A stretch of DNA of 64,000 bases from an uncultured Erysipelotrichaceae bacterium. Its GTDB lineage: Bacteria; Bacillota_I; Bacilli_A; RF39; UBA660. The notes below the pieces were generated by a model. The model was given only the letters and a program-made list of their open reading frames with translations. It had not been told where the DNA came from and searched no databases. Within the stretch, counting starts at the first letter, position 1; each line of letters starts with the position of its first letter. Where the stretch lies: positions 16,688 through 80,687 of the forward strand of contig CACZAH010000002.1 in assembly GCA_902779035.1 (NCBI GenBank), in the 5' to 3' direction. This document shows positions 1 through 14,061 of the stretch, in pieces. Made by a program: the position numbers and the translations under genes.

Positions 1-66
1 GCAAGTATATTTTCTAACTTTTTTTGTATTTCATTAAAATATATTTTTATACATATTTAATTACAA

Positions 67-2007
67 TTATTCTTTTCTTCTTTTTAATTCATAGAATATT
101 GTAAAAATAACAAGACCAATTATTGCAAATCCAGATATAACAATAAGAATACTTCTTATACTAAATGTATTAGGAACATCAACAATTGTTGAATCGCGCA
201 TTACTACGATGTTATCATCATCACCTTTAACCACTCCATTTTCTATAGTAAAATTAACTTTTTCAGCAATAGTATATCCTTGTGGAGCAGTAAATTCAGT
301 TAATGTATAATCTCCATCGTGTAATCCAATAATTTCTTGAGGCTCTTCAGTTGATGTCCAAGACTTTATTTCGTTACCTTGTGAATCAGTTATAACTAAT
401 TTTGCACCTGGTAATTCTTGTGTTGATGTAATGCTTTGTTTACTCACTTTAATTAAGGAATGAATATTTGTAAGTGTTACAACATTTTTGCTATCATCAG
501 CATCTATAGTAATATCAACAGACCATATTCCATCTGCAAAGCCATCTGGCCTTTTTGTTTCTGAAACTTTATATTTATTTCCAACGGCTAATCCCTCAAT
601 TATTTTTGGTTGACCATCAGTGACAAATTTTTCTATAACACATTCTGACGAATCAGCATTTTCATCATCTAAAGAAAGTATACAATTTAAGTCACTAACT
701 TCGATTTCAGCTCCAATAACAGGGTCATTATTCTCATCTACTTTATTAATAGTTAAAGGCCTCTCATCCTTTTTATTAGTTATAATTATTGTGTTATCAT
801 TTGGATTTTCTCTACTAATTGTTACACATTTCTTTTCTGAATTCAATTTGTATCCAATAGGAGATTTAACCTCTTCTGCACAATATATTCCAGGTTCAGC
901 AACAGATGATTCAAATTTCCCATCAACAAGTTCTATATATCCATCGTTTTCGCTAATTAAATTTACAGGTTGCTCTTGCTCGTTTGCTTGATAAGTTATA
1001 CGAATAGATGCGCCATTTATAAATACGTTTTCATCATCAGCGTCTTTTTTAAACACTTTCAATATTAGATTTCCTACTACTGGAGATTTTGCTTTAACCT
1101 CTTTACATTCATCTTTTAATAAATTTGGTGTTAATGATTGATAAAAGCCACATTCATACTCCTGAGCAATTTTCCAACATCTTTTATTAGTTGCTTCAAA
1201 TTGAATGCTTATCTGTCCATTATTACTATTCTCAATCTTACTAGTAGTTAGTATAACGGTTTTATCATTTTGTTCAGTAGCCTCTACAGTAATTTCAGGT
1301 TGTGTGTTTCCATCAATTTTTACAACAACATTTTTACTAGTTAAATCGCATTCTGTCTTGCTTCCAGCTTTATCTGTACAAGTAACCTTTGCAGTTGCAA
1401 CACCAGTTGCCTCATCGTAATTAGCATTAGTTATATCTATTTTATTTACTCCATAGTTTTCAAACGCATAATTTGCAGCATTTACATATTTTTTAAAATC
1501 AACATTTCCACTAATACTTGATGGGACATCTATTGTATTATATGTAGTTCCATATCCCTTACCAATACCTCCAGATAAAAATCTATTTATAGCCATCTCA
1601 GCATAATAATAATTCTTCCAGTCCATTGAGCCAATTTTTTTATCAACTCTTGCCTCATAAATTATTTGTCCTACTGCAGCAGCTACATTTTTTTCATTAG
1701 CTGCATTTGTACTCCAATTTATAGCTGTACACGTCATACCTGGATAAGGCGCATCTTTATGAAAAGACGTACAAAATGCTTTTCCTGAATTATCACTATC
1801 TATACCTGCATATGCTTTTTTATATATATTCCAACCATAACCTTCATTTCTCCCAAACAAGTTAGAATTATCGCTCGGGTCCAATGTAGGCTTAATTTTA
1901 GTTGGAAAAACATCCACTGCTTTTACAAAATTAACTAAACAAAAAAATGTTCCTGTTATAACTGTTATAATCATAAGCAAAAATTTCTTCATAATATTAC
2001 CTCTCAA
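67..2007 (-). CDS. Secreted/cell-surface adhesin-like protein. Signal peptide; N-terminal Cys-containing domain shared with the 8917-10359 protein; C-terminal SpaA/Cna-B-type (prealbumin-fold) domain; C-terminal sorting-signal-like tail VPNTFS + hydrophobic segment + KRRKE
   Basis: The N-terminus MKKFLLMIITVITGTFFCLV is signal-peptide-like. The motif LPGAKLVITDSQGNEIKSW...YTLTEFTAPQGYTIAEK is typical of SpaA isopeptide/CnaB domains. The C-terminus DVPNTFSIRSILIVISGFAIIGLVIFTIFYELKRRKE has the tripartite cell-wall-sorting architecture but no LPXTG. Confidence 0.6.
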   Translation of the reverse strand: MRGNIMKKFLLMIITVITGTFFCLVNFVKAVDVFPTKIKPTLDPSDNSNLFGRNEGYGWNIYKKAYAGIDSDNSGKAFCTSFHKDAPYPGMTCTAINWSTNAANEKNVAAAVGQIIYEARVDKKIGSMDWKNYYYAEMAINRFLSGGIGKGYGTTYNTIDVPSSISGNVDFKKYVNAANYAFENYGVNKIDITNANYDEATGVATAKVTCTDKAGSKTECDLTSKNVVVKIDGNTQPEITVEATEQNDKTVILTTSKIENSNNGQISIQFEATNKRCWKIAQEYECGFYQSLTPNLLKDECKEVKAKSPVVGNLILKVFKKDADDENVFINGASIRITYQANEQEQPVNLISENDGYIELVDGKFESSVAEPGIYCAEEVKSPIGYKLNSEKKCVTISRENPNDNTIIITNKKDERPLTINKVDENNDPVIGAEIEVSDLNCILSLDDENADSSECVIEKFVTDGQPKIIEGLAVGNKYKVSETKRPDGFADGIWSVDITIDADDSKNVVTLTNIHSLIKVSKQSITSTQELPGAKLVITDSQGNEIKSWTSTEEPQEIIGLHDGDYTLTEFTAPQGYTIAEKVNFTIENGVVKGDDDNIVVMRDSTIVDVPNTFSIRSILIVISGFAIIGLVIFTIFYELKRRKE

Positions 2008-2035
2008 TCTTTATCTAGATTATAACATACTTAAA

Positions 2036-2065
2036 AAAAGTTAGCAAGTGTATTTTCTAACTTTT
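2036..2065 (-). terminator. Rho-independent terminator hairpin (AAAAGTTAG-loop-CTAACTTTT followed by a T-run on the minus strand) overlapping the stop of the 2057-3298 gene. A near-identical half copy lies at 1-23
   Basis: A perfect 9-bp inverted repeat with a 12-nt loop is visible in the sequence. The minus strand continues TTTTTTTAAG. Confidence 0.5.
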
Positions 2066-3298
2066 TAAAATATTATTTATTGCTTTAATAAGTGCAATCT
2101 TTCCATATTGATATGTGAGACCTCCTTGTTGATAAGCAATATAAGGTTCTTTAACCGGTCCATCACAAGATATTTCTATTGAACTTCCTTGAATAAACGA
2201 GCCTGATGCCATAATAATTGCATCGCTGTACCCGGGCATTTCATATGGAACTGGCGCAACATGCGAATCAATTGCTGACGCACTTTGAATACCTTGACAG
2301 TATTTAATCAATTTTTCTTTATTATTAAATATTATACTTTCTACAATATCGACTCTAGTATCATTATATTTAGGTGATACTTCAAACCCAAGTTCTTCCA
2401 TCACTTTACTAGTTAAAATAGCTGTTTTTACTGCAGATGAAACTACACTTGGTGCCATATATAAACCTTGTAAAAATAGTTTATTCATATTTAATGAAGG
2501 ACCTACTAGCTTTGCTTCTCCCGCTACATTTAATCTTTCACTACAAAGATGAATTAGTTTTTTCTTACCACAGATATATCCACCATTAGGCGCGATACCT
2601 CCACCTAAGTTTTTAATGAGTGAACCTATTATTATATCTGCACCTACTTCAAGTGGTGTAATCTTCTCTACAAATTCACAGTAACAATTATCAACCATTA
2701 TAATTATATCTTTATTAATACTTTTTACTAACTTAACTATCTTTTCTATTTTTTTAATATCAACACTTTTTCTTAAACTATATCCACGCGATCTTTGAAT
2801 ATATACTACTTTTACTTTATTCTTATTTAAAAACTTTTCAATCTTATCGTAAGCAAAATCACTATCTACTAAATCTATTTGTTTATAATTTATACCAAAT
2901 GATTTTAAGGAACTAGAATTATCTTTAATACCTATTACTTCTTCTAAAGTATCATAAGGTTTACCACTTATAGATAAAATAGTATCGTCTGGCCTTAGTA
3001 TTCCAAATAAAGCAGTAGATATTGCATGAGTTCCTGATATAATTTGCGACCTAACTAGACTATCTTCTCCACCTAATACGTAACTAAAAATACTTTCTAT
3101 TTTATCTCTACCAGCATCATCATAACCATATCCAGTAGTACCATTTAAATCAGATTCTGAAACCTTATATTTATTAAAAGCATTAAGTACCTTTAAGCTA
3201 TTATATTCACATAGTCTATCTACTTTATCAAATTCACCTTTTAATTCTAACTCATACTTTGTTACTAAATCAAATGCTTCCATTAGTGCCTCCATCAA
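2057..3298 (-). CDS. PLP-dependent Cys/Met-metabolism enzyme of the methionine gamma-lyase-like (YnbB / 'aluminium resistance') family
   Basis: 413 aa. Global resemblance to the YnbB-type gamma-lyase family (N-terminal EALxxAxxxV..., a GGxxPNGGY region); no exact motif was checked. Confidence 0.5.
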   Translation of the reverse strand: MMEALMEAFDLVTKYELELKGEFDKVDRLCEYNSLKVLNAFNKYKVSESDLNGTTGYGYDDAGRDKIESIFSYVLGGEDSLVRSQIISGTHAISTALFGILRPDDTILSISGKPYDTLEEVIGIKDNSSSLKSFGINYKQIDLVDSDFAYDKIEKFLNKNKVKVVYIQRSRGYSLRKSVDIKKIEKIVKLVKSINKDIIIMVDNCYCEFVEKITPLEVGADIIIGSLIKNLGGGIAPNGGYICGKKKLIHLCSERLNVAGEAKLVGPSLNMNKLFLQGLYMAPSVVSSAVKTAILTSKVMEELGFEVSPKYNDTRVDIVESIIFNNKEKLIKYCQGIQSASAIDSHVAPVPYEMPGYSDAIIMASGSFIQGSSIEISCDGPVKEPYIAYQQGGLTYQYGKIALIKAINNILKS

Positions 3299-4016
3299 CT
3301 CGAATAATACTATTATTTATATAACTTGCATCATCACTAGATAAAAAATATATTACATTTGCAACCTCGCGTACACTTGCAAATCTACCTAACATAATAT
3401 TTTTACACTCTTCTTTTATGTAATCATCATCTAACTCTTTATTCATATCTGTATTAACCCAACCAGGACATACTGCATTAACACGAATATTAGGGCTTAG
3501 GGTAGTTGCAAGATTATGCGTTAAAGATATAACACCTGCTTTAGATGCATCATAATCTAGACTGTATGGATAATAGCAATTTAAGGCAGTATTAGATGCA
3601 ACATTAATAATACTACCTTTTTTCATATATTTAGCAACATACTTTGTTACTAAATAAGTACCTATTAAATTAACATCTAATACTCTCTTAAAATCATCAA
3701 TATTTTTCTCAAAAGGAAGAGTATCAATAGCAATTCCAGCATTATTAACAAGTACATCAATACTACCAAATTTATTAATAATATCACTAACCATATTCTT
3801 TACTTCTTCTTCTTTTGATACATCACATTTCTCAAGTAAGCATCTTTGTCCTAAATCTTCTACTTTCTTCTTAACATTATCCGCACTATCGTCATCACTA
3901 TAATAATTAATAACTACATCATATTTATTTTCTGCATATTTTATTGCAGTTTCCGCACCTATTCCTTTAGATGCACCCGTAATTAATACAACCATAATAT
4001 CACCAACCACATCCAT
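3270..4016 (-). CDS. Short-chain dehydrogenase/reductase (SDR) family oxidoreductase
   Basis: TGASKGIGAETA Rossmann motif, NNAG, and an S...YDASKAG (YxxxK) catalytic motif. The start is uncertain (ATG at 4016 or 3995); the ORF overlaps the upstream gene by ~29 nt. Confidence 0.8.
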   Translation of the reverse strand: MDVVGDIMVVLITGASKGIGAETAIKYAENKYDVVINYYSDDDSADNVKKKVEDLGQRCLLEKCDVSKEEEVKNMVSDIINKFGSIDVLVNNAGIAIDTLPFEKNIDDFKRVLDVNLIGTYLVTKYVAKYMKKGSIINVASNTALNCYYPYSLDYDASKAGVISLTHNLATTLSPNIRVNAVCPGWVNTDMNKELDDDYIKEECKNIMLGRFASVREVANVIYFLSSDDASYINNSIIRVDGGTNGSI

Positions 4017-4064
4017 TTTATACCAAATACTATTTTTTATCAACAACCATCCTTTTTACTTTTT

Positions 4065-4091
4065 TTAGCACTCTCTCTTGACAAGTGCTAA
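4065..4091 (+). promoter_or_regulatory. CIRCE-like inverted repeat (HrcA operator): TTAGCACTC-N9-AAGTGCTAA, overlapping the clpB promoter
   Basis: The sequence matches the CIRCE consensus TTAGCACTC-N9-GAGTGCTAA with one mismatch. It lies 37 nt upstream of the clpB start. Confidence 0.75.
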
Positions 4092-4105
4092 AAAAAGAGT
4101 ATAAT
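4078..4105 (+). promoter_or_regulatory. Sigma-A-type promoter for clpB: TTGACA-N16-TATAAT
   Basis: TTGACA at 4078-4083 and TATAAT at 4100-4105 are separated by 16 nt. An AAGGAGGGG RBS follows at 4113-4121. Confidence 0.65.
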
Positions 4106-4127
4106 GTTATATAAGGAGGGGATAATT

Positions 4128-6242
4128 ATGAATATGAATAATCCTTATCAAGAAAATCTTGAAAATGCTTTAGAGAAATATGGTAGAGATATAGTTAAGG
4201 CAGTTAAGGATAATAAGACTGATCCTGTAATAGGCAGGGACGAAGAAATACGTAATGTTACTCGAATACTATCGCGTAAGACTAAGAATAATCCTGTATT
4301 AATTGGTGAACCCGGTGTAGGTAAGACTGCAATTATAGAAGGACTTGCGCAAAGAATAGTTAAGGGAGATGTACCAAATAGTTTAAAGAATAAAACAGTT
4401 TGGGAATTAGATTTAGGTGCATTAATTGCTGGGGCGAAGTTTCGTGGTGAATTTGAGGAAAGACTAAAAGCCGTTTTAAAAGAAATCAAAGAATCTAATG
4501 GCGATATCATTCTTTTTATCGATGAGATACATATGATAGTTGGAGCAGGAGCAGAAGGTGCAATGGATGCAGGTAATCTTTTAAAACCAATGCTTGCTCG
4601 AGGCGAGATATTATGTATTGGTGCGACTACTTTAAATGAATACCGTAAGTATATTGAAAAAGATGGAGCACTAGAGAGAAGATTTCAAAAAGTAATGGTT
4701 AAAGAACCAACAGTAATGGATACTATTACAATACTTAGAGGTTTAAAATCAAGATTTGAAGTATATCATAAAGTAACTATTAAGGATAAAGCATTAGTTG
4801 CTGCTGCTACACTATCTAATAGATATATAACAGATAGATTCTTACCTGATAAGGCTATAGACTTAGTAGATGAGGCATGTGCAACTATTAAAGTACAAAT
4901 GGAGTCAGTTCCTACTGAGATTGATACTTTAACAAGACAAATTATGCAACTTGAAATTGAAAAGGAAGCCTTAAAGAAAGAAAAAGATGATATATCTAAA
5001 TCAAGAATTACTGATATAAATACTAAGCTGGAGGAACTTAAAGAAAAAGAGACTAAGTTAAAAAATGACTGGCAAGAAGAAAAGAATATTAATACATTAA
5101 TTAATAAAAAGAAAGAAGAAATAGAAAAAGCTACTTTAGATTTAGAGCGTGCAGAAGATGAGTACGAGCTTGAAAAAGCTGCAATACTTCGTCACGGTAC
5201 TTTACCTAAGTTAAATAAAGAATTAGAAGAATTGAGAGAAAAGAGCAAAAATACAATTCTTAGTGATGTTGTTGATGATGAAGATATTGCTAAAATAATA
5301 TCTAAATGGACTTCTATTCCTATTAGTAAACTTGTTGGTGGCGAAAGAGAAAAACTAATTAATCTAGAAAAGAATTTAGAGAGAAGAGTTAAAGGACAAA
5401 GTGATGCATTACATACTGTAAGTGAAGCTATAATTAGATCACGAGCAGGCATTAAAGATCCAAATAGACCAATTGGTTCATTTATCTTCTTAGGTCCTAC
5501 TGGTGTAGGTAAAACTGAAGTTGCTAAAAGTTTAGCAGAAGAGTTATTTGATGATGAAAGACACATGGTTAGAATTGATATGAGTGAGTATATGGAATCT
5601 CATTCGGTTGCTAGATTAATTGGTGCCCCTCCAGGATATGTTGGATATGATGAAGGTGGACAATTAACTGAAGCAGTTAGAAGAAATCCTTATAGTATTA
5701 TTCTATTTGATGAAATAGAAAAAGCACATAAAGACATATTTAATGTTTTACTTCAAATACTTGATGATGGTCGTATCACTGATTCACAGGGTAGAACAGT
5801 TGATTTTAAAAACACAATAATAATTATGACATCTAATATTGGTAGTGAGTATATTCTTGATAACAACGAAAATTCTAAAAAGCTTATTGAGACTGAATTA
5901 CACAGTACATTTAAACCAGAATTCTTAAATAGAATAGATGAGATTATTACATTTAATCCTCTTAATAAAGATATTCTATATGAGATTCTTGATAATCAAA
6001 TATTAGATATTAATAAAAGACTTATTAATAAACATATCATTATTGAACTTACTGATAATTGCAAAAATGCAATTATAGATAATGCCTATAATCCTATATA
6101 TGGAGCACGACCTTTAAAAAGATATTTAAGCAAAAACATTGAATCATTAATTGCAAACTCTATTATTAAAGATGAAATAAAACCAAATTCTAAAGTATTA
6201 ATAGATTATATAGATAATAACTATATTATTGCAAACAAATAA
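4128..6242 (+). CDS. clpB: ClpB-type AAA+ disaggregase lacking the N-terminal domain (two NBDs plus a coiled-coil middle domain)
   Basis: [10 protein letters not shown] (NBD1 Walker A), a coiled-coil M-domain, GPTGVGKTE (NBD2 Walker A), and a conserved ClpB C-terminus. The start at 4128 has a strong RBS; the 4104 ATG has none. Confidence 0.9.
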
Positions 6243-6270
6243 GAAGGCTATATTAGTCTTCTTTTATTAT
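6242..6270 (+). terminator. clpB intrinsic terminator (AGAAG-N11-CTTCT + TTTTATTATT)
   Basis: A hairpin followed by a T-rich run sits immediately after the TAA stop. Confidence 0.5.
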
Positions 6271-6321
6271 TAATCAATAAAAATCTTGGCTAGTCCGGAG
6301 TCAATTCCATTTTAGCCATAA

Positions 6322-7647
6322 TCATCTAACTACTATTGCCATCGAACCAACTGATGAATACAAATTACTAACCTTACTTTTAGATAGAGTAAATTCATAT
6401 TGTCCCGAAGTTCTCGTCCATGGATCATATATAATAAAATCTCCTGTAATCTTATTATAACCTACAATTAATTGAACGTGTAAATTTCTTGGAACACCAT
6501 TAGACCAATTAACTGGACTGTTATAGGCATATGTTAAATATATAATTACTGGATTACCATTAACAATCTCACTTGCAATATCATCTATACTTGCACCACT
6601 TATATTAGAAATATTTCCATTACCAGATGATGATATTCCATATTCAACTAGTGGATTAGGAGCAATCCAATGAGCAACATCTCTTGGCTCCTTACCAAAT
6701 ATATCTAAGTAAAAACATGTATTAGGATTATCACTTTTTGGCATATTAGAAGCATACGTATATAAATCCATACCACTTAAATATCCCTTGTATTGTAACG
6801 CCATAAGCATTGATGTAGCTTCACATCCATTTAATACACCGTTTCTATTTTGACTTATGTAGGGAACATTCAATTTAACCCAAGCCTCGTTTATCTGTCT
6901 CTGTCTTTCTGCTTCTTCTTGAGCCCTTCTTTCTCTTTCAAGCCTTAACTGTTCTAGTCTTATTCTTTCCTTTTCTCTTGCAATTGCTTCTTTTTCTTCA
7001 ACTATAGTTAAAACAATACTAAGCTTTTCATTTAATTTGCTCTTAATATCTTCTTGTTTTAATGAATCAACTAGTGCTTTTACTTCATTATAAATATTCC
7101 TATTCACACTATCAATCACTACGTTATTATCATAATCACTAAATAAGTTATGAACACTATTATGTGCATTATTAATGTTATCATACTCACTTTTTAATTC
7201 ATTAATTCTATTTTGAATTATTTCTTTATACTTCTTATCTAATTTATTACTTTCTTCATTAAGTTTATTAATATCATCTTCTTTAATTGATGATATAACT
7301 ATATTATCTTTATAATAAATATTAATTTTATTATTTAAATTGATATATTCTTTTGCCCTATATAAATTATTTTTTATATCTAGTACACTATCCTTATTAT
7401 ATACTAATTTTATTTTATCTAAACAAGCATCTAACTCTTTTATAGTTACATTATCTTTTATTAAATCATCATTATACAAAGAGTTACAATAACTAACTGC
7501 ATTTTCATATATTTCTTTTCTTTTTTCAGCTAATTTAATTTTATCAGACTTTATTTTGTTATATAAAAGTATAACTAACAATATAGTAATCAATACAAAC
7601 AATAGTATAGAAATTATAATAATTAATTTTTTGTTACTTCTTATCAT
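6322..7647 (-). CDS. Membrane-anchored protein with a coiled-coil region and a C-terminal C39-like (papain-fold, Peptidase_C39_2/YvpB-like) cysteine-peptidase domain
   Basis: An N-terminal TM segment (LIIIISILLFVLITILLVILLY) and a long K/E-rich coiled coil. The C-terminal domain carries candidate Cys (NGCEATSMLMA) and His (HVQLIVGYN) residues. Confidence 0.45.
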   Translation of the reverse strand: MIRSNKKLIIIISILLFVLITILLVILLYNKIKSDKIKLAEKRKEIYENAVSYCNSLYNDDLIKDNVTIKELDACLDKIKLVYNKDSVLDIKNNLYRAKEYINLNNKINIYYKDNIVISSIKEDDINKLNEESNKLDKKYKEIIQNRINELKSEYDNINNAHNSVHNLFSDYDNNVVIDSVNRNIYNEVKALVDSLKQEDIKSKLNEKLSIVLTIVEEKEAIAREKERIRLEQLRLERERRAQEEAERQRQINEAWVKLNVPYISQNRNGVLNGCEATSMLMALQYKGYLSGMDLYTYASNMPKSDNPNTCFYLDIFGKEPRDVAHWIAPNPLVEYGISSSGNGNISNISGASIDDIASEIVNGNPVIIYLTYAYNSPVNWSNGVPRNLHVQLIVGYNKITGDFIIYDPWTRTSGQYEFTLSKSKVSNLYSSVGSMAIVVR

Positions 7648-7695
7648 ACACTTCTCCTACTTTTTAAGTATACTATAAACATAGAAAAAAAGGAA

Positions 7696-8844
7696 CTATC
7701 TATTTTGTTCCTTTATTAATTTTGCTTGAATAACTATTCTATTACCATTAAAATCTAGACAAGTAGAAAGTGTAAGTAATCTATCTTTTGTAGCAACATT
7801 TATTCCAAAGTCATATATACTACGTGATAGCATGGTATCAATAAATTTCTGATAAGATTCATCATTTTCAAAAGTATGAGTAAGATAATATGACTCTGAT
7901 GGAATTGTATAAATAGATACTATTTGCCACAATGTATTTTTCTCCGGTGTTGATAACTTAATAATCTGATTTTCTTTATTTGTATACCAAGATTCATCTA
8001 ATACCCTCTCTAAGCTACCAAACATAACTTGATCAACACGTCCATGCCCATATATAACAGTATTTTTTAAGAAATTATCAAAATTAGATTTATAGTCAGC
8101 AAATAACCAGCCGGCTACATTATATGATTTATCATAAGAGTGATTTAAATAAAACTCATTATCCCCACCTTGTACAAATGGATAATTAACATTAGTATTA
8201 TTTACATAAATCCATCCCTTAGTATCAGGATTAATATTTTTTAATTCATCAAAATTAACACTAATCATAGTTGTTTTCATATAATTCCAATAATCTTCAC
8301 CATATTTATGATTTTCTGCAGCTTCACCTGTTACTTCTGGAATTTCAGTAGCGCTAAAAGCAATATTTTCTTCTATTTTTGTATTCTTAAGTACATTATT
8401 CATTAGATGATGAACATCTTCACCTTCACTATACCAATTAAACAATGTAACTCCTCCAAAAATAAGAGCAGATAACGATATAAATAACAATATAAAGTAT
8501 TTATTAAAAATCTTAATCTTTTTCTTAGTCTTTTTCTTGCTATAAATAAAACTATCAACAAGATTCTTTATTTCTTTATCATTTTTTAAATTTTTTTCAT
8601 TTAAAGAATCAATGAAACTATCTATTTTAGATTTTCCTTCATCATTAAATTCAAATACCTTAAGCCATCTATCATATGGAGTATAAATATCTTTATCATT
8701 AACTATATCATGTTTAAAGTAAAAATATTTATTATTCTCTTTACAGATAATGAAATCAATATCATTATATTTAAAACTATATATTTTATTATATACTTTA
8801 CCATTATATAAACATAAAGAATTCATACTCATCCCCCTCTTCAA
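7696..8844 (-). CDS. Sortase (class B-like transpeptidase) with an unusually long N-terminal cytoplasmic domain and a TM anchor
   Basis: The C-terminal domain has the sortase catalytic signature: His (VIYGHGRV), TLSTC, and a downstream Arg (NGNRIVIQA). A TM helix (FILLFISLSALIFGGVTLF) follows ~110 aa of N-terminal sequence with no recognisable motif. Confidence 0.75.
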   Translation of the reverse strand: MKRGMSMNSLCLYNGKVYNKIYSFKYNDIDFIICKENNKYFYFKHDIVNDKDIYTPYDRWLKVFEFNDEGKSKIDSFIDSLNEKNLKNDKEIKNLVDSFIYSKKKTKKKIKIFNKYFILLFISLSALIFGGVTLFNWYSEGEDVHHLMNNVLKNTKIEENIAFSATEIPEVTGEAAENHKYGEDYWNYMKTTMISVNFDELKNINPDTKGWIYVNNTNVNYPFVQGGDNEFYLNHSYDKSYNVAGWLFADYKSNFDNFLKNTVIYGHGRVDQVMFGSLERVLDESWYTNKENQIIKLSTPEKNTLWQIVSIYTIPSESYYLTHTFENDESYQKFIDTMLSRSIYDFGINVATKDRLLTLSTCLDFNGNRIVIQAKLIKEQNR

Positions 8845-8916
8845 TTGGTGTTTATACTACCACAAATATAGAAAAAAAGCAAATTAATAAAAAGCAGATC
8901 ACAAGGATCTACTTAA

Positions 8917-10359
8917 TTATTTTTGATGTTTTAATTTATAAATTGATAATCCTGCACCAACAGCACCAATAAGAGTAATTACAACAAACATTGTAATATT
9001 TTTACCAGCTGTATCTGGAGTTTTTGAGTTATACATTACAACACTAGTTTCAACTTCACCAGAGTCTCCTACGTTAAACTTAATTACTTCATAACTTAAA
9101 TCATATCCTGAAGGTGCTTGAATCTCAATTAAAGTATATTCACCTTTATCAAGTTCAAGATAATGAGGTTCAGTACCTGATACCCATCTATCAATCTCTT
9201 CACCCTTAGAATTTTTAAGTACTAAAGTCGCTCCTGGTAGTTCTTTCTTAGTTGTAATGTCCTGCTTACTAATCTTTACTTTATACTTGTCTTTTAATGT
9301 GTTGTACATAGTAATCTCAGCAACTTTTCCATCGGCCTTTAACTCAAACTCAATAACTTCTTCAGTTAATTTATAACCGTCTGGAGCAATAATCTCAGTT
9401 AAAGAATATTTTCCTGGCTCTAAACCTTCAATATAATGAGCTTCATCACCAGATACCCACTTATCAACTTCATCACCATTTGAATTTTTAAGTACTAAAG
9501 TCGCTCCTGGAAGCTCTTTTTTATTTGTTAAATCTTGTTTACTAATTTTTAACTTAGTTATTTTCTTAGTAATATTTCCACTAATACTTTTATCACTAGT
9601 CTTATCTGACTTTTCAACTTCATTTATTGTACTAGCCTGATTACCGCTACCACAATCATATTTTTTGGCAATACTCATACTTTTATTTGCACTTACCTTA
9701 ACATTAACAGTAGTAGTTTCATCAACCTTAACAGATGTATTTGGCACTTTAACATAGAACTCATTTCCATTTTGTTCATATGTAGCACCTTCCGCACCAC
9801 TAACACTTATACTGTATTCATCACTACCAGATACAGTTACTTTATTAGAAATATAATTATCTCCATTTAAAGTAAAAGTTAACTCGTCTGTACTTAAACT
9901 AACACTATAATCCTTCTTAGCCGCATTATAAGCGTTAACAGCTGCATCATAATAAGATTGAATTGAATCAACAACTCTTATATTATTAACTTCATCGTGA
10001 GTTTCATAATCATATAAGAATTTATTAATAGCAAGTTCTGCATAATAATAATTTTGTGTACTAGGTGATGCATTATACTTATCAATTATTGCAGCAACTC
10101 CAGCAGCACCTGCATAACTCCATTGTTCACTACTTAATTTACAGCTTGTTCCAACACCATCAATGTTAAAAGTTGTACAGAAAACTACTCCGTTTCCATA
10201 CACTTTATGATAAAGTTCAATTCCTCCATCATAACTAATTACACTTTCCTTAGTAATACCATCAATACTATTTGGAAGTGCATTTACTCCACTTGTACCA
10301 ATTATTGATACAATTCCTATTACAAACACTAGTAATAGATACTTTATTTTGTTAAACAT
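8917..10359 (-). CDS. Secreted surface protein with two tandem SpaA/CnaB-type domains, an N-terminal domain shared with the 67-2007 protein, and the C-terminal tail TPDTAG + TM + KLKHQK
   Basis: Signal peptide; two repeats of KKELPGATLVLKNS.GxExDxWVSG.EPHY.E...YTL.EI.AP.GY; and a C-terminal sorting-signal-like architecture without LPXTG. Confidence 0.6.
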   Translation of the reverse strand: MFNKIKYLLLVFVIGIVSIIGTSGVNALPNSIDGITKESVISYDGGIELYHKVYGNGVVFCTTFNIDGVGTSCKLSSEQWSYAGAAGVAAIIDKYNASPSTQNYYYAELAINKFLYDYETHDEVNNIRVVDSIQSYYDAAVNAYNAAKKDYSVSLSTDELTFTLNGDNYISNKVTVSGSDEYSISVSGAEGATYEQNGNEFYVKVPNTSVKVDETTTVNVKVSANKSMSIAKKYDCGSGNQASTINEVEKSDKTSDKSISGNITKKITKLKISKQDLTNKKELPGATLVLKNSNGDEVDKWVSGDEAHYIEGLEPGKYSLTEIIAPDGYKLTEEVIEFELKADGKVAEITMYNTLKDKYKVKISKQDITTKKELPGATLVLKNSKGEEIDRWVSGTEPHYLELDKGEYTLIEIQAPSGYDLSYEVIKFNVGDSGEVETSVVMYNSKTPDTAGKNITMFVVITLIGAVGAGLSIYKLKHQK

Positions 10360-10400
10360 ATATTATATTCCCCCTTCGCCTTTTTCGGCTGACGGTTCAT

Positions 10401-10430
10401 ATAATATCACAATTATTTTATAATGTCAAT
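10401..10430 (-). promoter_or_regulatory. Candidate promoter for the 8917-10359 adhesin gene (TTGACA-N18-TATTAT on the minus strand)
   Basis: The hexamers were read on the reverse complement. Position relative to the start codon is appropriate. Confidence 0.35.
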
Positions 10431-10439
10431 TTGAAAAAA

Positions 10440-11321
10440 CTACTTTTTTAACACTTTTTTTAATTCCTTAACGTTTTTATCTTCCATCTTAGTTAAAGGG
10501 AGTCTAACTGAATCACTTTTAATAAGTCCAAGTTCATATAAAGCGCGTTTTACTGGTATTGGATTAACCTCACTAAATAATACTTTACTATATAAAATTG
10601 CCTTTTCATTTAATAAACTACTCTTCTTATAATCACCACTTAAATATGAATAAACTAAATTGTGCATATCTTTAGGAATTACATTTGCATCTACAGATAT
10701 TACACCAACTCCACCTAATGATAATACAGGTAATACTTGATCATCATTACCCGAGTATATATCCATATCTATATTATTCTTTCCTTTTAGATAAGCAAGT
10801 CGCGCTACCTGTGATATATTACCACTAGCTTCCTTAATACCTATAACATTCTTATTATTCTTTACAATATCTATTGCAGTATCAGGTTCTATATTTACAC
10901 CAGTTCTACTTGGTACATTATACATAAGAATTGGTATAGATACATTATCACTAATCATTTTATAATGCTCCTTCAAACCATTTTGTGTACATTTATTATA
11001 GTAAGGAGTAACAACTAGTAATCCATCTACCCCAATACTTTCTGCAGTTTGTGACAGTTTAACCGCACTCTTAGTACAATTAGAACCAGTTCCAGCAATA
11101 ACACATACCCTACCATCAACATACTCAACACACTTCTTAATACACTCAATCTGTTCATCATAAGATAAAGTTGATGCTTCCCCAGTAGTTCCACATACAA
11201 CAATAGCATCAGTACCATTACTAATCTCATAATCAATTAATTTATACATTGATTCATAATCAATCATATCATTATAAAAAGGCGTAACAAGTGCAACACC
11301 AGAACCCTTAAACAACGACAT
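10440..11321 (-). CDS. dapA: Dihydrodipicolinate synthase / N-acetylneuraminate lyase family (DapA-like) aldolase
   Basis: N-terminal GVALVTPF, a GTTGE motif, and overall DHDPS-family length and pattern. RBS GAGGTGGTG. Confidence 0.7.
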   Translation of the reverse strand: MSLFKGSGVALVTPFYNDMIDYESMYKLIDYEISNGTDAIVVCGTTGEASTLSYDEQIECIKKCVEYVDGRVCVIAGTGSNCTKSAVKLSQTAESIGVDGLLVVTPYYNKCTQNGLKEHYKMISDNVSIPILMYNVPSRTGVNIEPDTAIDIVKNNKNVIGIKEASGNISQVARLAYLKGKNNIDMDIYSGNDDQVLPVLSLGGVGVISVDANVIPKDMHNLVYSYLSGDYKKSSLLNEKAILYSKVLFSEVNPIPVKRALYELGLIKSDSVRLPLTKMEDKNVKELKKVLKK

Positions 11322-11367
11322 AACACCACCTCAATATATTTTATGAACAAAACTTTTTTATGCATCA

Positions 11368-11398
11368 AAAAACTTGTGTATTAATCTGTTACACAAGC
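11368..11398 (-). repeat. 31-bp perfect direct repeat copy A (AAAAACTTGTGTATTAATCTGTTACACAAGC). It contains the terminator hairpin CTTGTGTA-N9-TACACAAG downstream of yafQ
   Basis: Identical to 12111-12141. On the minus strand the hairpin is followed by TTTTGATGC. Confidence 0.8.
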
Positions 11399-11418
11399 TT
11401 TAATAACACATAATAATT

Positions 11419-11703
11419 CTAAAATACATCACTATGACTACCAGTATTAACTAATAATAAAATTAGTTCATTATCCAAATATTTATATATTAATAGCCAA
11501 TCAGGTTCAATATGACAATCACGACATCCTTTATATTTTTTGTCATCATATAATGTATGATCTCTATTCTTTATTTCTAATTGCTCTTTTATTGCCAATT
11601 TTTCTATAACTAAATCAAGCTTACTTAAATCTTTTCCATGCTTTAGCATCTTCTTTAAACTTTTCTTAAATTGATTAGAATAAATAACTTCATATTTAAT
11701 CAT
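11419..11703 (-). CDS. yafQ: Type II toxin YafQ (RelE/ParE superfamily mRNA interferase)
   Basis: KYKGCRDCHIEPDWLLIYKY...LLLVNTGSHSDVF aligns with E. coli YafQ (WKGYRDAHVEPDWILIYK...RTGTHAALF). Confidence 0.85.
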   Translation of the reverse strand: MIKYEVIYSNQFKKSLKKMLKHGKDLSKLDLVIEKLAIKEQLEIKNRDHTLYDDKKYKGCRDCHIEPDWLLIYKYLDNELILLLVNTGSHSDVF

Positions 11704-11704
11704 A

Positions 11705-11983
11705 TTACATAAGTTCCTTTTTAAGTTCTTCCCAATTGTTATTCTTTTTATATTCTTCTAGATGTGTCTCAATATAATCAAGTTCTTCTAATGCTGCTTT
11801 CATATCATTACTCATTTGTGGTTCTCTAACTTCAAAAGGAATACCACCTCTCATAATTACTTGTTTTATGGTCATATTAATTAAACCACTCATGGTAACT
11901 CCTAATCTTTGTAGTATTTCTGTTGCTTTTTCTTTATCTTTAGCATCTACTTGTACATTTATAGGAGCAGTTAAACTTGCCAT
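11705..11983 (-). CDS. dinJ: DinJ/RelB-family antitoxin (RHH)
   Basis: PINVQVDAKDKEKATEILQRLGVTMSGLINMTIKQV..GGIPFEVREP aligns with E. coli DinJ. The stop is 1 nt before the yafQ start. The start was chosen at the internal ATG (MASLTAP...). Confidence 0.8.
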   Translation of the reverse strand: MASLTAPINVQVDAKDKEKATEILQRLGVTMSGLINMTIKQVIMRGGIPFEVREPQMSNDMKAALEELDYIETHLEEYKKNNNWEELKKELM

Positions 11984-12110
11984 AATGCCATCTCCTTTCA
12001 ATCTAATAATAACATATTTTATATAATTTTTCAAGTATTTTTGTATAAAATCACTACATCTATAATAATATTATATGTATATTTTCAACTAATTATTCAA
12101 TAATTATAAT

Positions 12111-12141
12111 AAAAACTTGTGTATTAATCTGTTACACAAGC
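12111..12141 (-). repeat. 31-bp perfect direct repeat copy B (same hairpin), overlapping the 3' end of the LCP gene
   Basis: Identical to 11368-11398. On the minus strand the hairpin is followed by TTTTTATTAT. Confidence 0.8.
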
Positions 12142-13998
12142 CTTTATAGATGCATCATAGCTATAATTATCAGGACAACATACCATGCCTAATTTTTCAT
12201 AATGATAATTAGTTTCACACACAGGTTTCTTCTCATAATTTGCTTTAGTACATTTGCCATTATTCATTTTATAATCTTTAGGACATGTTAAGTCTACACT
12301 ACAAGTCTCTATTCCATCTTCATCTGTTTCAAGTTCACCTGTACAAATAGCCTCTTCAATATCAACATCATCTGTTTCTATTAAACACATGCCATCTTCC
12401 TGATTCTTACAAGCTGGATACATATAATCTTTAATATCTTTCTTTTGTTTTATTTCTTCTTTAGTAGTATTGGTCTCTTCTTTCTTTTCTTCTTTTGTTT
12501 CAGTCTCTTCTTTAGAACTATAATTATTAGTTGCAGTAGTAGCCGGTCCATCATATGTATATGTTGGCTCTAACTTCTTGCCATTAATAACATCATTAAT
12601 TAGATTATGTGCTTGTTCAATAGAACCTAATTTGGGTTCAAATACGAATAGTTTCATATTTCCACCACTATAAGTATAGTTATTACTATTAACTCCATCT
12701 AAGTTATATGTAGATATATTCCAAGTAGACATATCATTTAATTGCATCTTTAATAATGATGTAATCTTATTAGAACTCATATTAGTTTGGAATTTTCCTT
12801 TTAAAGAATTTAATAATGAATCATATTTAGTAATAATACTCTTACTACAAACTTTCTTGATTAATGCAGCTATTACTGCTTGTTGATCTTTACCACGTTG
12901 TATATCTCCTGCTTGAAAAGCCTTACGTTCTCTTGCAAAAGCTAAAGCCTGCTCTCCATTCATATTATTATTTCCCTCAGTAAAATGTACGCCATCTATT
13001 GATGTAAATGTATAATCAGAATATACTGTAATTCCACCTAACGCATTAACTATATCAATTAATGATGTAAAGTTAACTTTTACATAATAGTTAATCTCTA
13101 TATCAAGCAAATCTTCAATAGTTGCGATAGACATATCAACTCCATATATTCCAGCATGAGTTAATTTATCTTTAATACCTGTTGTACCGTGTAACTGGAC
13201 ATAATAATCTCTTGGAATACTTGTAAGTAATACTTGTTTAGTTTTAGGGTTAACTGTCGCAACTATATTTACATCACTTCTTGATACTGACGAAATCTCA
13301 CCATAAGTATCTATTCCAGTTATATAGATATTAAATGGTTTTCTTGTTACATTAACATCTTTTGCCTTAGTATTAGATTTAATCTTAATAACAAATTTAT
13401 AAATTACTTTTGTCTTATTATTAAATTCAGGGTCATCTTCATTAACCATTGATAATACTGAATCTTCTAACATAATAACTTTTTCTTCATTATTTAATAA
13501 TTTACTTGCCATCTCATTTGCATCATCATAATCTTTAAAATTAACATCAACGTTTTTAAGAACTTTCCTATTTGCATCTTTAGCTCCTTTAGAATTAGAG
13601 TAATATGCAACATTTAAATCCTTAATATCTTTTATTTTATTATATTCACTATCCTTTACAACTATTACTGAATACGTTTCTGTCTTATAGTCAGTTGGTC
13701 CTATTTTTGCAAGGAATCCTAGTGTATTTAAAATATAATGAGCAAAAAATGCCATAACTCCTAATACTACTATTGTTAAAAAAGCAAAGAATCCACGTAC
13801 TCCTTTTCTAGCTTTCTTACGCATTAGAAATATATCAAAGAATATATTGATGAATGCAATTCCACCTAGCACTAAATATAAATACTTATCAGGAAGCAAA
13901 TTAACTTTATATATAATATATGACATGAATAAACTTGCTAGAAATAGTATTAAAGCAAGTATTTTAAATATACTCAATCTTCGTTTTCTTCTTCTCAT
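12124..13998 (-). CDS. LytR-CpsA-Psr (LCP) family glycopolymer transferase with an N-terminal TM anchor and an unusual Cys-rich acidic C-terminal extension
   Basis: The LCP core LLTSIPRDYYVQL...GIYGVDMSIATIEDLLDIEINYYVKVNF..LIDIVNALGGITV is present. The C-terminal ~110 aa carries 14 Cys. Confidence 0.8.
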   Translation of the reverse strand: MRRRKRRLSIFKILALILFLASLFMSYIIYKVNLLPDKYLYLVLGGIAFINIFFDIFLMRKKARKGVRGFFAFLTIVVLGVMAFFAHYILNTLGFLAKIGPTDYKTETYSVIVVKDSEYNKIKDIKDLNVAYYSNSKGAKDANRKVLKNVDVNFKDYDDANEMASKLLNNEEKVIMLEDSVLSMVNEDDPEFNNKTKVIYKFVIKIKSNTKAKDVNVTRKPFNIYITGIDTYGEISSVSRSDVNIVATVNPKTKQVLLTSIPRDYYVQLHGTTGIKDKLTHAGIYGVDMSIATIEDLLDIEINYYVKVNFTSLIDIVNALGGITVYSDYTFTSIDGVHFTEGNNNMNGEQALAFARERKAFQAGDIQRGKDQQAVIAALIKKVCSKSIITKYDSLLNSLKGKFQTNMSSNKITSLLKMQLNDMSTWNISTYNLDGVNSNNYTYSGGNMKLFVFEPKLGSIEQAHNLINDVINGKKLEPTYTYDGPATTATNNYSSKEETETKEEKKEETNTTKEEIKQKKDIKDYMYPACKNQEDGMCLIETDDVDIEEAICTGELETDEDGIETCSVDLTCPKDYKMNNGKCTKANYEKKPVCETNYHYEKLGMVCCPDNYSYDASIKACVTD

Positions 13999-14061
13999 AA
14001 TATCACGCTACCTATTTTTTCAATTATAACAAAATATATTGTTTGTGTAAATTAGATTCAC

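Follow-up and report, generated by a model that had tools for sequence, protein, structure and literature searches.

A class B sortase beside a putative thioester adhesin with a TPxTA-type sorting signal in an uncultured gut Firmicute

The locus and its two adhesin genes

The DNA analysed here is a 64-kb stretch (the window) from an uncultured low-GC gut Firmicute. Near its left end lie a class B sortase gene and two genes for secreted proteins, called here A and B. Protein B is encoded at 8917-10359 and is followed by the sortase, whose open reading frame (ORF) spans 7696-8844 (likely gene 7696-8826). A membrane-bound C39-like peptidase lies at 6322-7647. The ORF of protein A spans 67-2007, where ATG 1992 is the likely start codon, as in homologue P0241. 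Three unrelated genes, identified by ORF listing and domain scan, stand between A and the peptidase: a Met_gamma_lyase-family pyridoxal phosphate enzyme (2057-3298), an SDR or FabG-like reductase (3270-4046) and, on the opposite strand, a ClpB without its N-terminal domain (4104-6242). All genes given coordinates here are on the minus strand except clpB. The window edge is 66 nucleotides (nt) downstream of the stop codon of A, and the rest of the A gene cluster lies beyond that edge.

The initial annotation described A and B as secreted proteins with SpaA/CnaB-type domains, each ending in a motif, a hydrophobic helix and a basic tail, with a TLSTC sortase and a membrane C39-like peptidase between them. 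Both proteins have this architecture at the positions given above, and ORF and domain scans confirm the two enzymes (PF04203 for the sortase). A and B are the only ORFs of the window with such a three-part C-terminus. Their signal peptides were assigned by eye. The domain model PF17802 matches B in two stretches (E 7.8e-33) and A in three (E 1.7e-30).

Protein B has 480 residues, beginning with a signal peptide (residues 1-27, VNA|LP) and a class II thioester domain (residues ~28-262). Two CnaB domains follow at residues 266-353 (K274/E322/N353) and 357-444 (K365/E412/N444), and the isopeptide Lys, Glu and Asn columns of both are at least 90% conserved in the homologue alignment. An AF2 model built on 64 homologues (predicted local distance difference test, pLDDT, 86) has as its top Foldseek match in the PDB the Bacillus anthracis thioester (TIE) protein BaTIE (6FWV, E 1e-27, ~450 aligned columns). 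The B-family profile matches 6FWV at E 9e-50, and its Gln241 column falls on BaTIE Gln266 (own residue count). In BaTIE the thioester joins Gln266 to Cys71 (PMC6194298). In B, Gln241 (9637-9639) is invariant in the homologue alignment, and Cys61 (10177-10179; FCTT), which fits [YFL]CΦζ, is at least 90% conserved. Because both fold and profile match BaTIE and Gln241 falls on the bond-forming Gln266, B is predicted to be a class II TIE protein, a stalked thioester-domain adhesin like BaTIE.

The accessory motif TQxxΦW of thioester domains reads AExxΦN in the clade of the window (AELAIN in B, AEMAIN in A). The Gln and Trp of TQxxΦW are reported to be dispensable for bond formation (PMC6194298). 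The Q-to-E change within YYAELAIN was considered as a lost thioester Gln and rejected; the site belongs to this accessory motif, and the bond-forming residue is the invariant Gln241. The thioester domain has no match to PF08341 even at E<=10, while distant homologues of B have both a PF08341 match and TQxxΦW. Two additional cysteines have also arisen in the clade of the window (Cys73 and Cys236 of B), one on each of the segments that the thioester would join, and the relatives with TQxxΦW have neither of them (compared region: B residues 60-241, nt 9637-10182 of the minus strand; A residues 78-290). This suggests a possible lineage-specific disulfide. Protein A aligns with B over the whole thioester domain, including Cys79 and Gln290 (ORF numbering), AEMAIN and the extra cysteines. 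By this alignment A is classed as a paralogue of B and a putative TIE-type adhesin.

The class B sortase and its candidate substrate

Residues of the sortase are numbered on the 382-residue ORF from 8844, in which M7 (8826) is the likely start. A membrane helix occupies residues 116-137 (8434-8499) and the catalytic domain residues ~190-382. The catalytic triad consists of His267 (8044-8046; YGHGR), Cys362 in TLSTC (7759-7761) and Arg369 (7738-7740; NGNRIV), all three invariant in 20 homologues of 42-88% identity. With the class B model TIGR03064 the enzyme reaches 156.5 bits (cut-off 153.75), a margin of under 3 bits. Among the other sortase models only that of the class B LPKTxAVK subtype is matched, below its own cut-off, and the class A, C, D, E and F models give no match at E<=0.01. 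All 15 PDB matches are to the SrtB family. Those of Staphylococcus aureus and B. anthracis are the closest (E ~1e-34 to 1e-33), followed by Clostridioides difficile (~1e-31), Clostridium perfringens and Listeria (1e-29 to 1e-28), and Streptococcus pyogenes Spy0129 as the weakest (5e-21). Since TIGR03064 is passed, the PDB matches are all SrtB and the triad is invariant, the enzyme is assigned from its sequence to class B (MEROPS C60B).

A class A or class D identity was rejected on the same grounds. The initial annotation had pointed to class D or class B and had tied the former to sporulation. The class D assignment and the sporulation link were not supported, as no class D model matched and every PDB match was a SrtB enzyme. 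In a spot check of the sporulation genes that had been listed, a DacB-like carboxypeptidase was confirmed and the presumed spm ORFs gave no NCBIfam match at 1e-10. Non-LPXTG signals are nothing new for class B sortases, nor is the linkage of these enzymes to the genes of their substrates. The signals described include NPQTN, NPKTG, [S/P]PxTG and QVPTG (PMC8225981, PMC4155245, PMC7900414, PMC11987632).

The C-terminus of B reads KTPDTAG-KN-ITMFVVITLIGAVGAGLSIY-KLKHQK. This sorting signal (8920..9021) consists of TPDTAG (9004-9021), the helix (8938-8997) and the KLKHQK tail (8920-8937). The peptide sequences around the sorting motifs are YNSKTPDTAGKN (candidate substrate of the class B sortase, with a predicted cut after Thr) and TIVDVPNTFSIR. 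The three-part tail is present in 114 of the 120 listed homologues of B. A pattern recovers xPxT in 85 of these 114 and clips some 27 further cases of the form VP|ITS. In the recovered motifs Pro and Thr (P448 and T450 in B) are invariant and keep a fixed spacing to the helix in homologues down to ~33% identity, while x and both residues that follow Thr vary. For the family the consensus is [T/V]-P-x-T-[A/S/D]-[D/G/L]. The motif is thus kept in orthologues in its Pro and Thr, a point on which the initial annotation had staked its reading. Neither the LPXTG-anchor model TIGR01167 nor the curated class B signal models of NCBIfam match the tails of A or B, and an NCBIfam scan of B as a whole gives no match of any kind. 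Wall-anchored adhesins in a large group of uncultured gut Bacilli are probably under-annotated, as the anchor models miss these signals.

Relatives of the sortase were collected by a scan of one genome per species, which gave 274 loci. The best 80 of the 274, which were kept, all come from uncultured gut Bacilli, Erysipelotrichaceae or "Tenericutes" metagenome-assembled genomes. Pairing was counted over the loci in which the sortase shares an N-terminal extension with that of the window and the upstream sequence is readable (n=23, 38-88% identity). At 22 of the 23 the gene directly upstream is B-type and ends in [T/I/V/L]P[D/N/Q/V/E]T[A/S/G][D/G/N], a helix and a [Y/F]KL[K/S/N]xQx tail. Several distant SrtB relatives without the extension adjoin proteins ending in NPxT[S/G]D, the classical class B pattern. 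The upstream pairing is the main evidence that B is a substrate of the adjacent enzyme, so that the class B sortase probably fixes B to the cell wall by a conserved TPxTA-type signal and not by LPXTG. The part of the initial annotation that proposed sortase-mediated display through a non-LPXTG signal is upheld in this form for B; it probably does not hold for A as a client of the same sortase. What appears to be new is the combination: the class B sortase has a signal consensus that is uncharacterised and carries an additional cytoplasmic domain, and its putative substrate is a TIE adhesin. The signal [T/I/V]PxT[A/S][D/G] and the class B enzyme form a directly testable pair which, if active, could extend sortase-mediated protein ligation by an orthogonal specificity.

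The N-terminal extension forms a domain of residues ~7-105 that is conserved in the clade paired with B-type adhesins. As it precedes the membrane helix it is expected to be cytoplasmic. Its model is a five-stranded beta-barrel with three helices (pLDDT ~92 over the core), it has no match in Pfam or the PDB, and a search of 1.8 billion representative proteins found it in only four. The domain could recognise or gate the cognate adhesin from the cytoplasmic side, or couple anchoring to a cytoplasmic signal. This idea, which we consider speculative and improbable, stems from the co-occurrence of the domain with the conserved substrate tail [Y/F]KL[K/S/N]xQx, a co-occurrence confounded by shared ancestry. 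To our knowledge, a cytoplasmic substrate-selection step has not been described for any sortase. If true, cytoplasmic gating would give each adhesin a truly private sortase.

Other N-terminal features occur among related enzymes. A short cytoplasmic motif, [DE]xY[IVT]P[KR]HA, is common near the N-terminus of many related class B sortases (loci L035, L047-L049, L051, L061, L064, L072 and L075-L078). Some of these, for example L048, L049, L051, L061, L075 and L077, adjoin substrates ending in NPxTSD. The SrtB relatives of gut Bacilli with long "HIEQINP" N-terminal extensions have no candidate substrate adjacent to them.

A probable second sortase and the case for two cassettes

The C-terminus of A reads VDVPNTFS-IRS-ILIVISGFAIIGLVIFTIFY-ELKRRKE. 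Within the gene (67..1992, minus strand) VPNTFS lies at 160-177, the helix at 91-150 and the ELKRRKE tail at 70-90. A profile search of all ORFs of the window together with TLxTC patterns finds no second sortase inside it. Contig L084 is 99.0% identical to positions 1-7172 of the window and reaches 2.6 kb further. In this contig (7222-9724, running beyond window position 1) A is followed by a paralogue, A2, and then by a 228-residue sortase with TLITC. A2 has 617 residues, ends in VEVPDTFD, a helix and YETKKKKA, and overlaps the start of the sortase gene. Four other contexts, L002, L003, L004 and L087, have a single A-type gene with a small sortase of ~225 residues directly after it (19950-20645 in L002, 11759-12448 in L003, 9942-10613 in L004). 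In L003 and L004 a gene for a polytopic membrane protein comes next. The small sortase thus directly follows the A-type gene in five of the six contexts examined.

This small enzyme is not class B and only just passes the generic sortase model. It scores weakly with class C (49 bits against a cut-off of 160) and class D (40 against 140). Its family has an invariant His and TLxTC, an invariant Gln-Thr where the Arg after the Cys is expected, and an invariant Arg 12 residues before the Cys. In the A family the motif reads V-[P/D/E]-[D/N]-T-[F/L], in which Thr is invariant and Pro usual. An adjacent small sortase likewise accompanies each of the related TIE proteins that have canonical thioester domains and VP[I/N]T[D/S/A] signals. 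Since the small sortase follows A-type genes in L084, L002, L003, L004 and L087, A is most likely served by its own small non-class-B sortase just past the left edge of the window. A separate arrangement is seen in metagenomic contig L083 (6001-14379), where the unit of thioester adhesin, small sortase and unknown protein stands in tandem; two of the units are complete, and the start of another SpaA-domain gene follows them.

The region likely holds two separate cassettes ~6 kb apart, each made up of an adhesin and a private sortase, rather than one system. The first occupies approximately 7696-10430 and comprises gene B and the class B sortase. In the proposed mechanism, B would be exported by Sec and retained in the membrane through the helix and charged tail at its C-terminus. 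The class B sortase (His267, Cys362, Arg369) would cut B after the Thr of TPDT|AG and transfer it to the amine of a peptidoglycan precursor, giving covalent attachment to the wall. Outside the cell, the two CnaB domains would lock themselves by Lys-Asn isopeptide bonds to form a stalk, and the class II thioester domain at the tip (Cys61-Gln241) could form a covalent link to a nucleophile of the target surface. In the second cassette, A (VPNT|FS) would be handled likewise by the different, small sortase beyond the left edge. Which sortase acts on which protein is judged from gene pairing. One adhesin with one private sortase, and two unrelated sortase types beside paralogous thioester adhesins, make a good case for studying how the specificity of a sortase and its substrate evolve together. 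Nothing here overturns current understanding, and the arrangement is a fairly ordinary variation on a known theme.

Several points weigh against this interpretation. The TIGR03064 cut-off is passed only narrowly. The thioester of B may not form, given that TQxxΦW and a PF08341 match are both missing. The activity of the small sortase is uncertain because there is no Arg after its catalytic Cys. The motif Pro is replaced in three A-type sequences (VDDTF, VEDTF and IANTL), and the distant A-type gene L085 has no adjacent sortase. Other sortases elsewhere in the genome might act on A or B. Finally, the motifs of A and B are alike (xP[D/N]Tx), which makes cross-recognition possible.

The initial annotation had proposed another arrangement, one system in which the class B sortase anchors both proteins. 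In its favour, A and B are TIE-type paralogues that share xP[D/N]Tx signals, they lie ~6 kb apart in a gene order that is kept in L002-L004, and the window holds a single sortase. However, the A-type genes have their own small sortase directly after them in five of six contexts, the 99%-identical strain of L084 included, and A is set apart from the class B sortase by three housekeeping genes, of which one lies on the opposite strand. The A and B families also show consistent differences in the residue after Thr and in their cytoplasmic tails. We regard a single system as doubtful, and this part of the earlier reading was not borne out.

The initial annotation had also raised the possibility of a pilus. 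Here the class B sortase would polymerise B or join A to B, as SrtC/Spy0129 does with FctA and Cpa. Class B sortases can polymerise pilins, and the thioester adhesin Cpa bears a VPPTG-type signal (PMC7900414). The CnaB domains of B resemble shaft pilins, and the order of structural gene, hairpin and sortase resembles that of pilus operons. Yet each sortase has one structural gene, whose product bears a thioester domain of the tip type, N-terminal in both A and B, and no shaft pilin was seen. The YPK pilin motif is in neither A nor B, a check that an unconventional acceptor Lys would escape, and none of the genes of 1-12 kb beside the sortase is SipA/LepA-like. The sortase matches the anchoring SrtB enzymes better (E 1e-34) than it does Spy0129 (E 5e-21), and BaTIE, the best structural match of B, is a monomeric wall-anchored protein (PMC6194298). 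A pilus is unlikely, and quite clearly so, in favour of the separate anchoring of two adhesins. Still less credence is given to the absence of any processing, with A and B as plain C-terminal membrane anchors, xPxT as incidental and the sortase acting elsewhere: TIGR01167 detects neither tail and the class II TIE adhesin TIEpLS20 is reported to work without a sortase (PMC8092201), but Pro and Thr hold their distance from the helix down to ~33% identity while the flanks vary, and substrate and sortase are adjacent in 22 of 23 loci.

Known systems and neighbouring genes

One close parallel is SrtB of C. difficile with its substrates CD2831, CD3246 and others. There too a class B sortase serves collagen-binding or CnaB-type adhesins and not haem-uptake proteins (PMC4155245, PMC4591827), in a spore-forming gut Firmicute and with an xPxT-type signal that is neither LPXTG nor NPQTN, and its structures (5GYJ/4UX7) match the window sortase at E ~1e-31. 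The substrates of C. difficile SrtB carry [S/P]PxTG, whereas the signal here is [T/I/V]PxT[A/S][D/G], in which Thr is not followed by Gly. The gene of the substrate here adjoins that of the sortase, and the sortase has a cytoplasmic N-terminal domain of ~105 residues. No cyclic di-GMP riboswitch was found; an Rfam scan of positions 1-14000 (E<=0.1) gave no riboswitch or other RNA element upstream of B.

The closest solved sortases are S. aureus SrtB and B. anthracis SrtB, which act on IsdC (NPQTN and NPKTG). Their substrate gene is likewise linked to the sortase, and the motif shares the form xPxTx with an acidic residue after it (NPKTGD, for example). IsdC, however, is a haem receptor with a NEAT domain and a motif that starts with Asn, whereas the protein here is a putative adhesin and the motif starts with Thr, Ile or Val.

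BaTIE (BasC/BA5258) shares with B a signal peptide, a class II thioester domain with an inserted beta-sandwich, a CnaB stalk and a C-terminal sorting signal. It differs in being a class A sortase substrate with LPATG, whereas B has TPDTAG and a class B sortase as neighbour. BaTIE has an unfolded linker of 38 residues before its motif, while in B the motif follows only about two residues after the last CnaB Asn. BaTIE also keeps TQxxΦW, in contrast to the AExxΦN and the additional Cys73 and Cys236 of B.

The FCT pilus of S. pyogenes (SrtC/Spy0129, Cpa, FctA) likewise has a sortase of class B fold that acts on thioester and CnaB proteins with V/QxPTG-type signals (PMC7900414). It differs in its separate shaft pilin, base pilin, SipA chaperone and polymerisation, none of which is seen here. 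Among class D sortases (Bacillus subtilis YhcS and B. anthracis SrtC, with LPDTA, LPDTS and LPNTA; PMC8225981) the likeness is between LPDTA and TPDTA. The window sortase has no class D match, and the small sortase of A-type genes is far below the class D cut-off and does not have the Arg after the Cys.

Two promoter-like sites and a hairpin were found by pattern matching, on the minus strand. The site of gene B (10401..10429) has TTGACA, a 17-nt spacer and TATTAT with an upstream TG; it matches the consensus at 11 of 12 positions and lies 42 nt upstream of B. That upstream of gene A (2019..2047) has TTGCTA, a 17-nt spacer and TATAAT with TG. The total count of such sites equals the expectation from shuffled sequence. 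A terminator-like hairpin with a T-run (8892..8914; 9-bp stem, 5-nt loop) stands directly past the stop codon of B and ahead of the sortase gene. The promoter-like site and the hairpin would fit a highly expressed B with read-through into the sortase gene.

The C39-like peptidase had been taken as part of the system. Peptidase_C39_2 (PF13529) matches the product of 6322-7647 with 81.2 bits against a gathering threshold of 24, and the protein has an N-terminal membrane helix and a charged coiled coil. Only the two closest relatives, L001 and L002, have the gene; L003-L005 are otherwise syntenic but lack it, and there the sortase gene lies directly against clpB. Its GC content is the lowest of the region (21-25%, against ~29-31% on the flanks). 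The gene is probably a lineage-specific insertion between the sortase and clpB, and a role for it as a core component was rejected on the basis of this synteny.

Other neighbours are of minor interest. The family-model match of ClpB starts at position 144, and the space upstream is too short for a longer ORF. A DapA gene (10440-11321), identified by ORF listing and domain scan, lies on the far side of B. Between dapA and a gene for an LCP-family transferase sits a toxin-antitoxin pair (11419-12034, minus strand), made up of a YafQ/RelE-type toxin (PF15738, E 5e-28) and a RelB antitoxin (PF04221).

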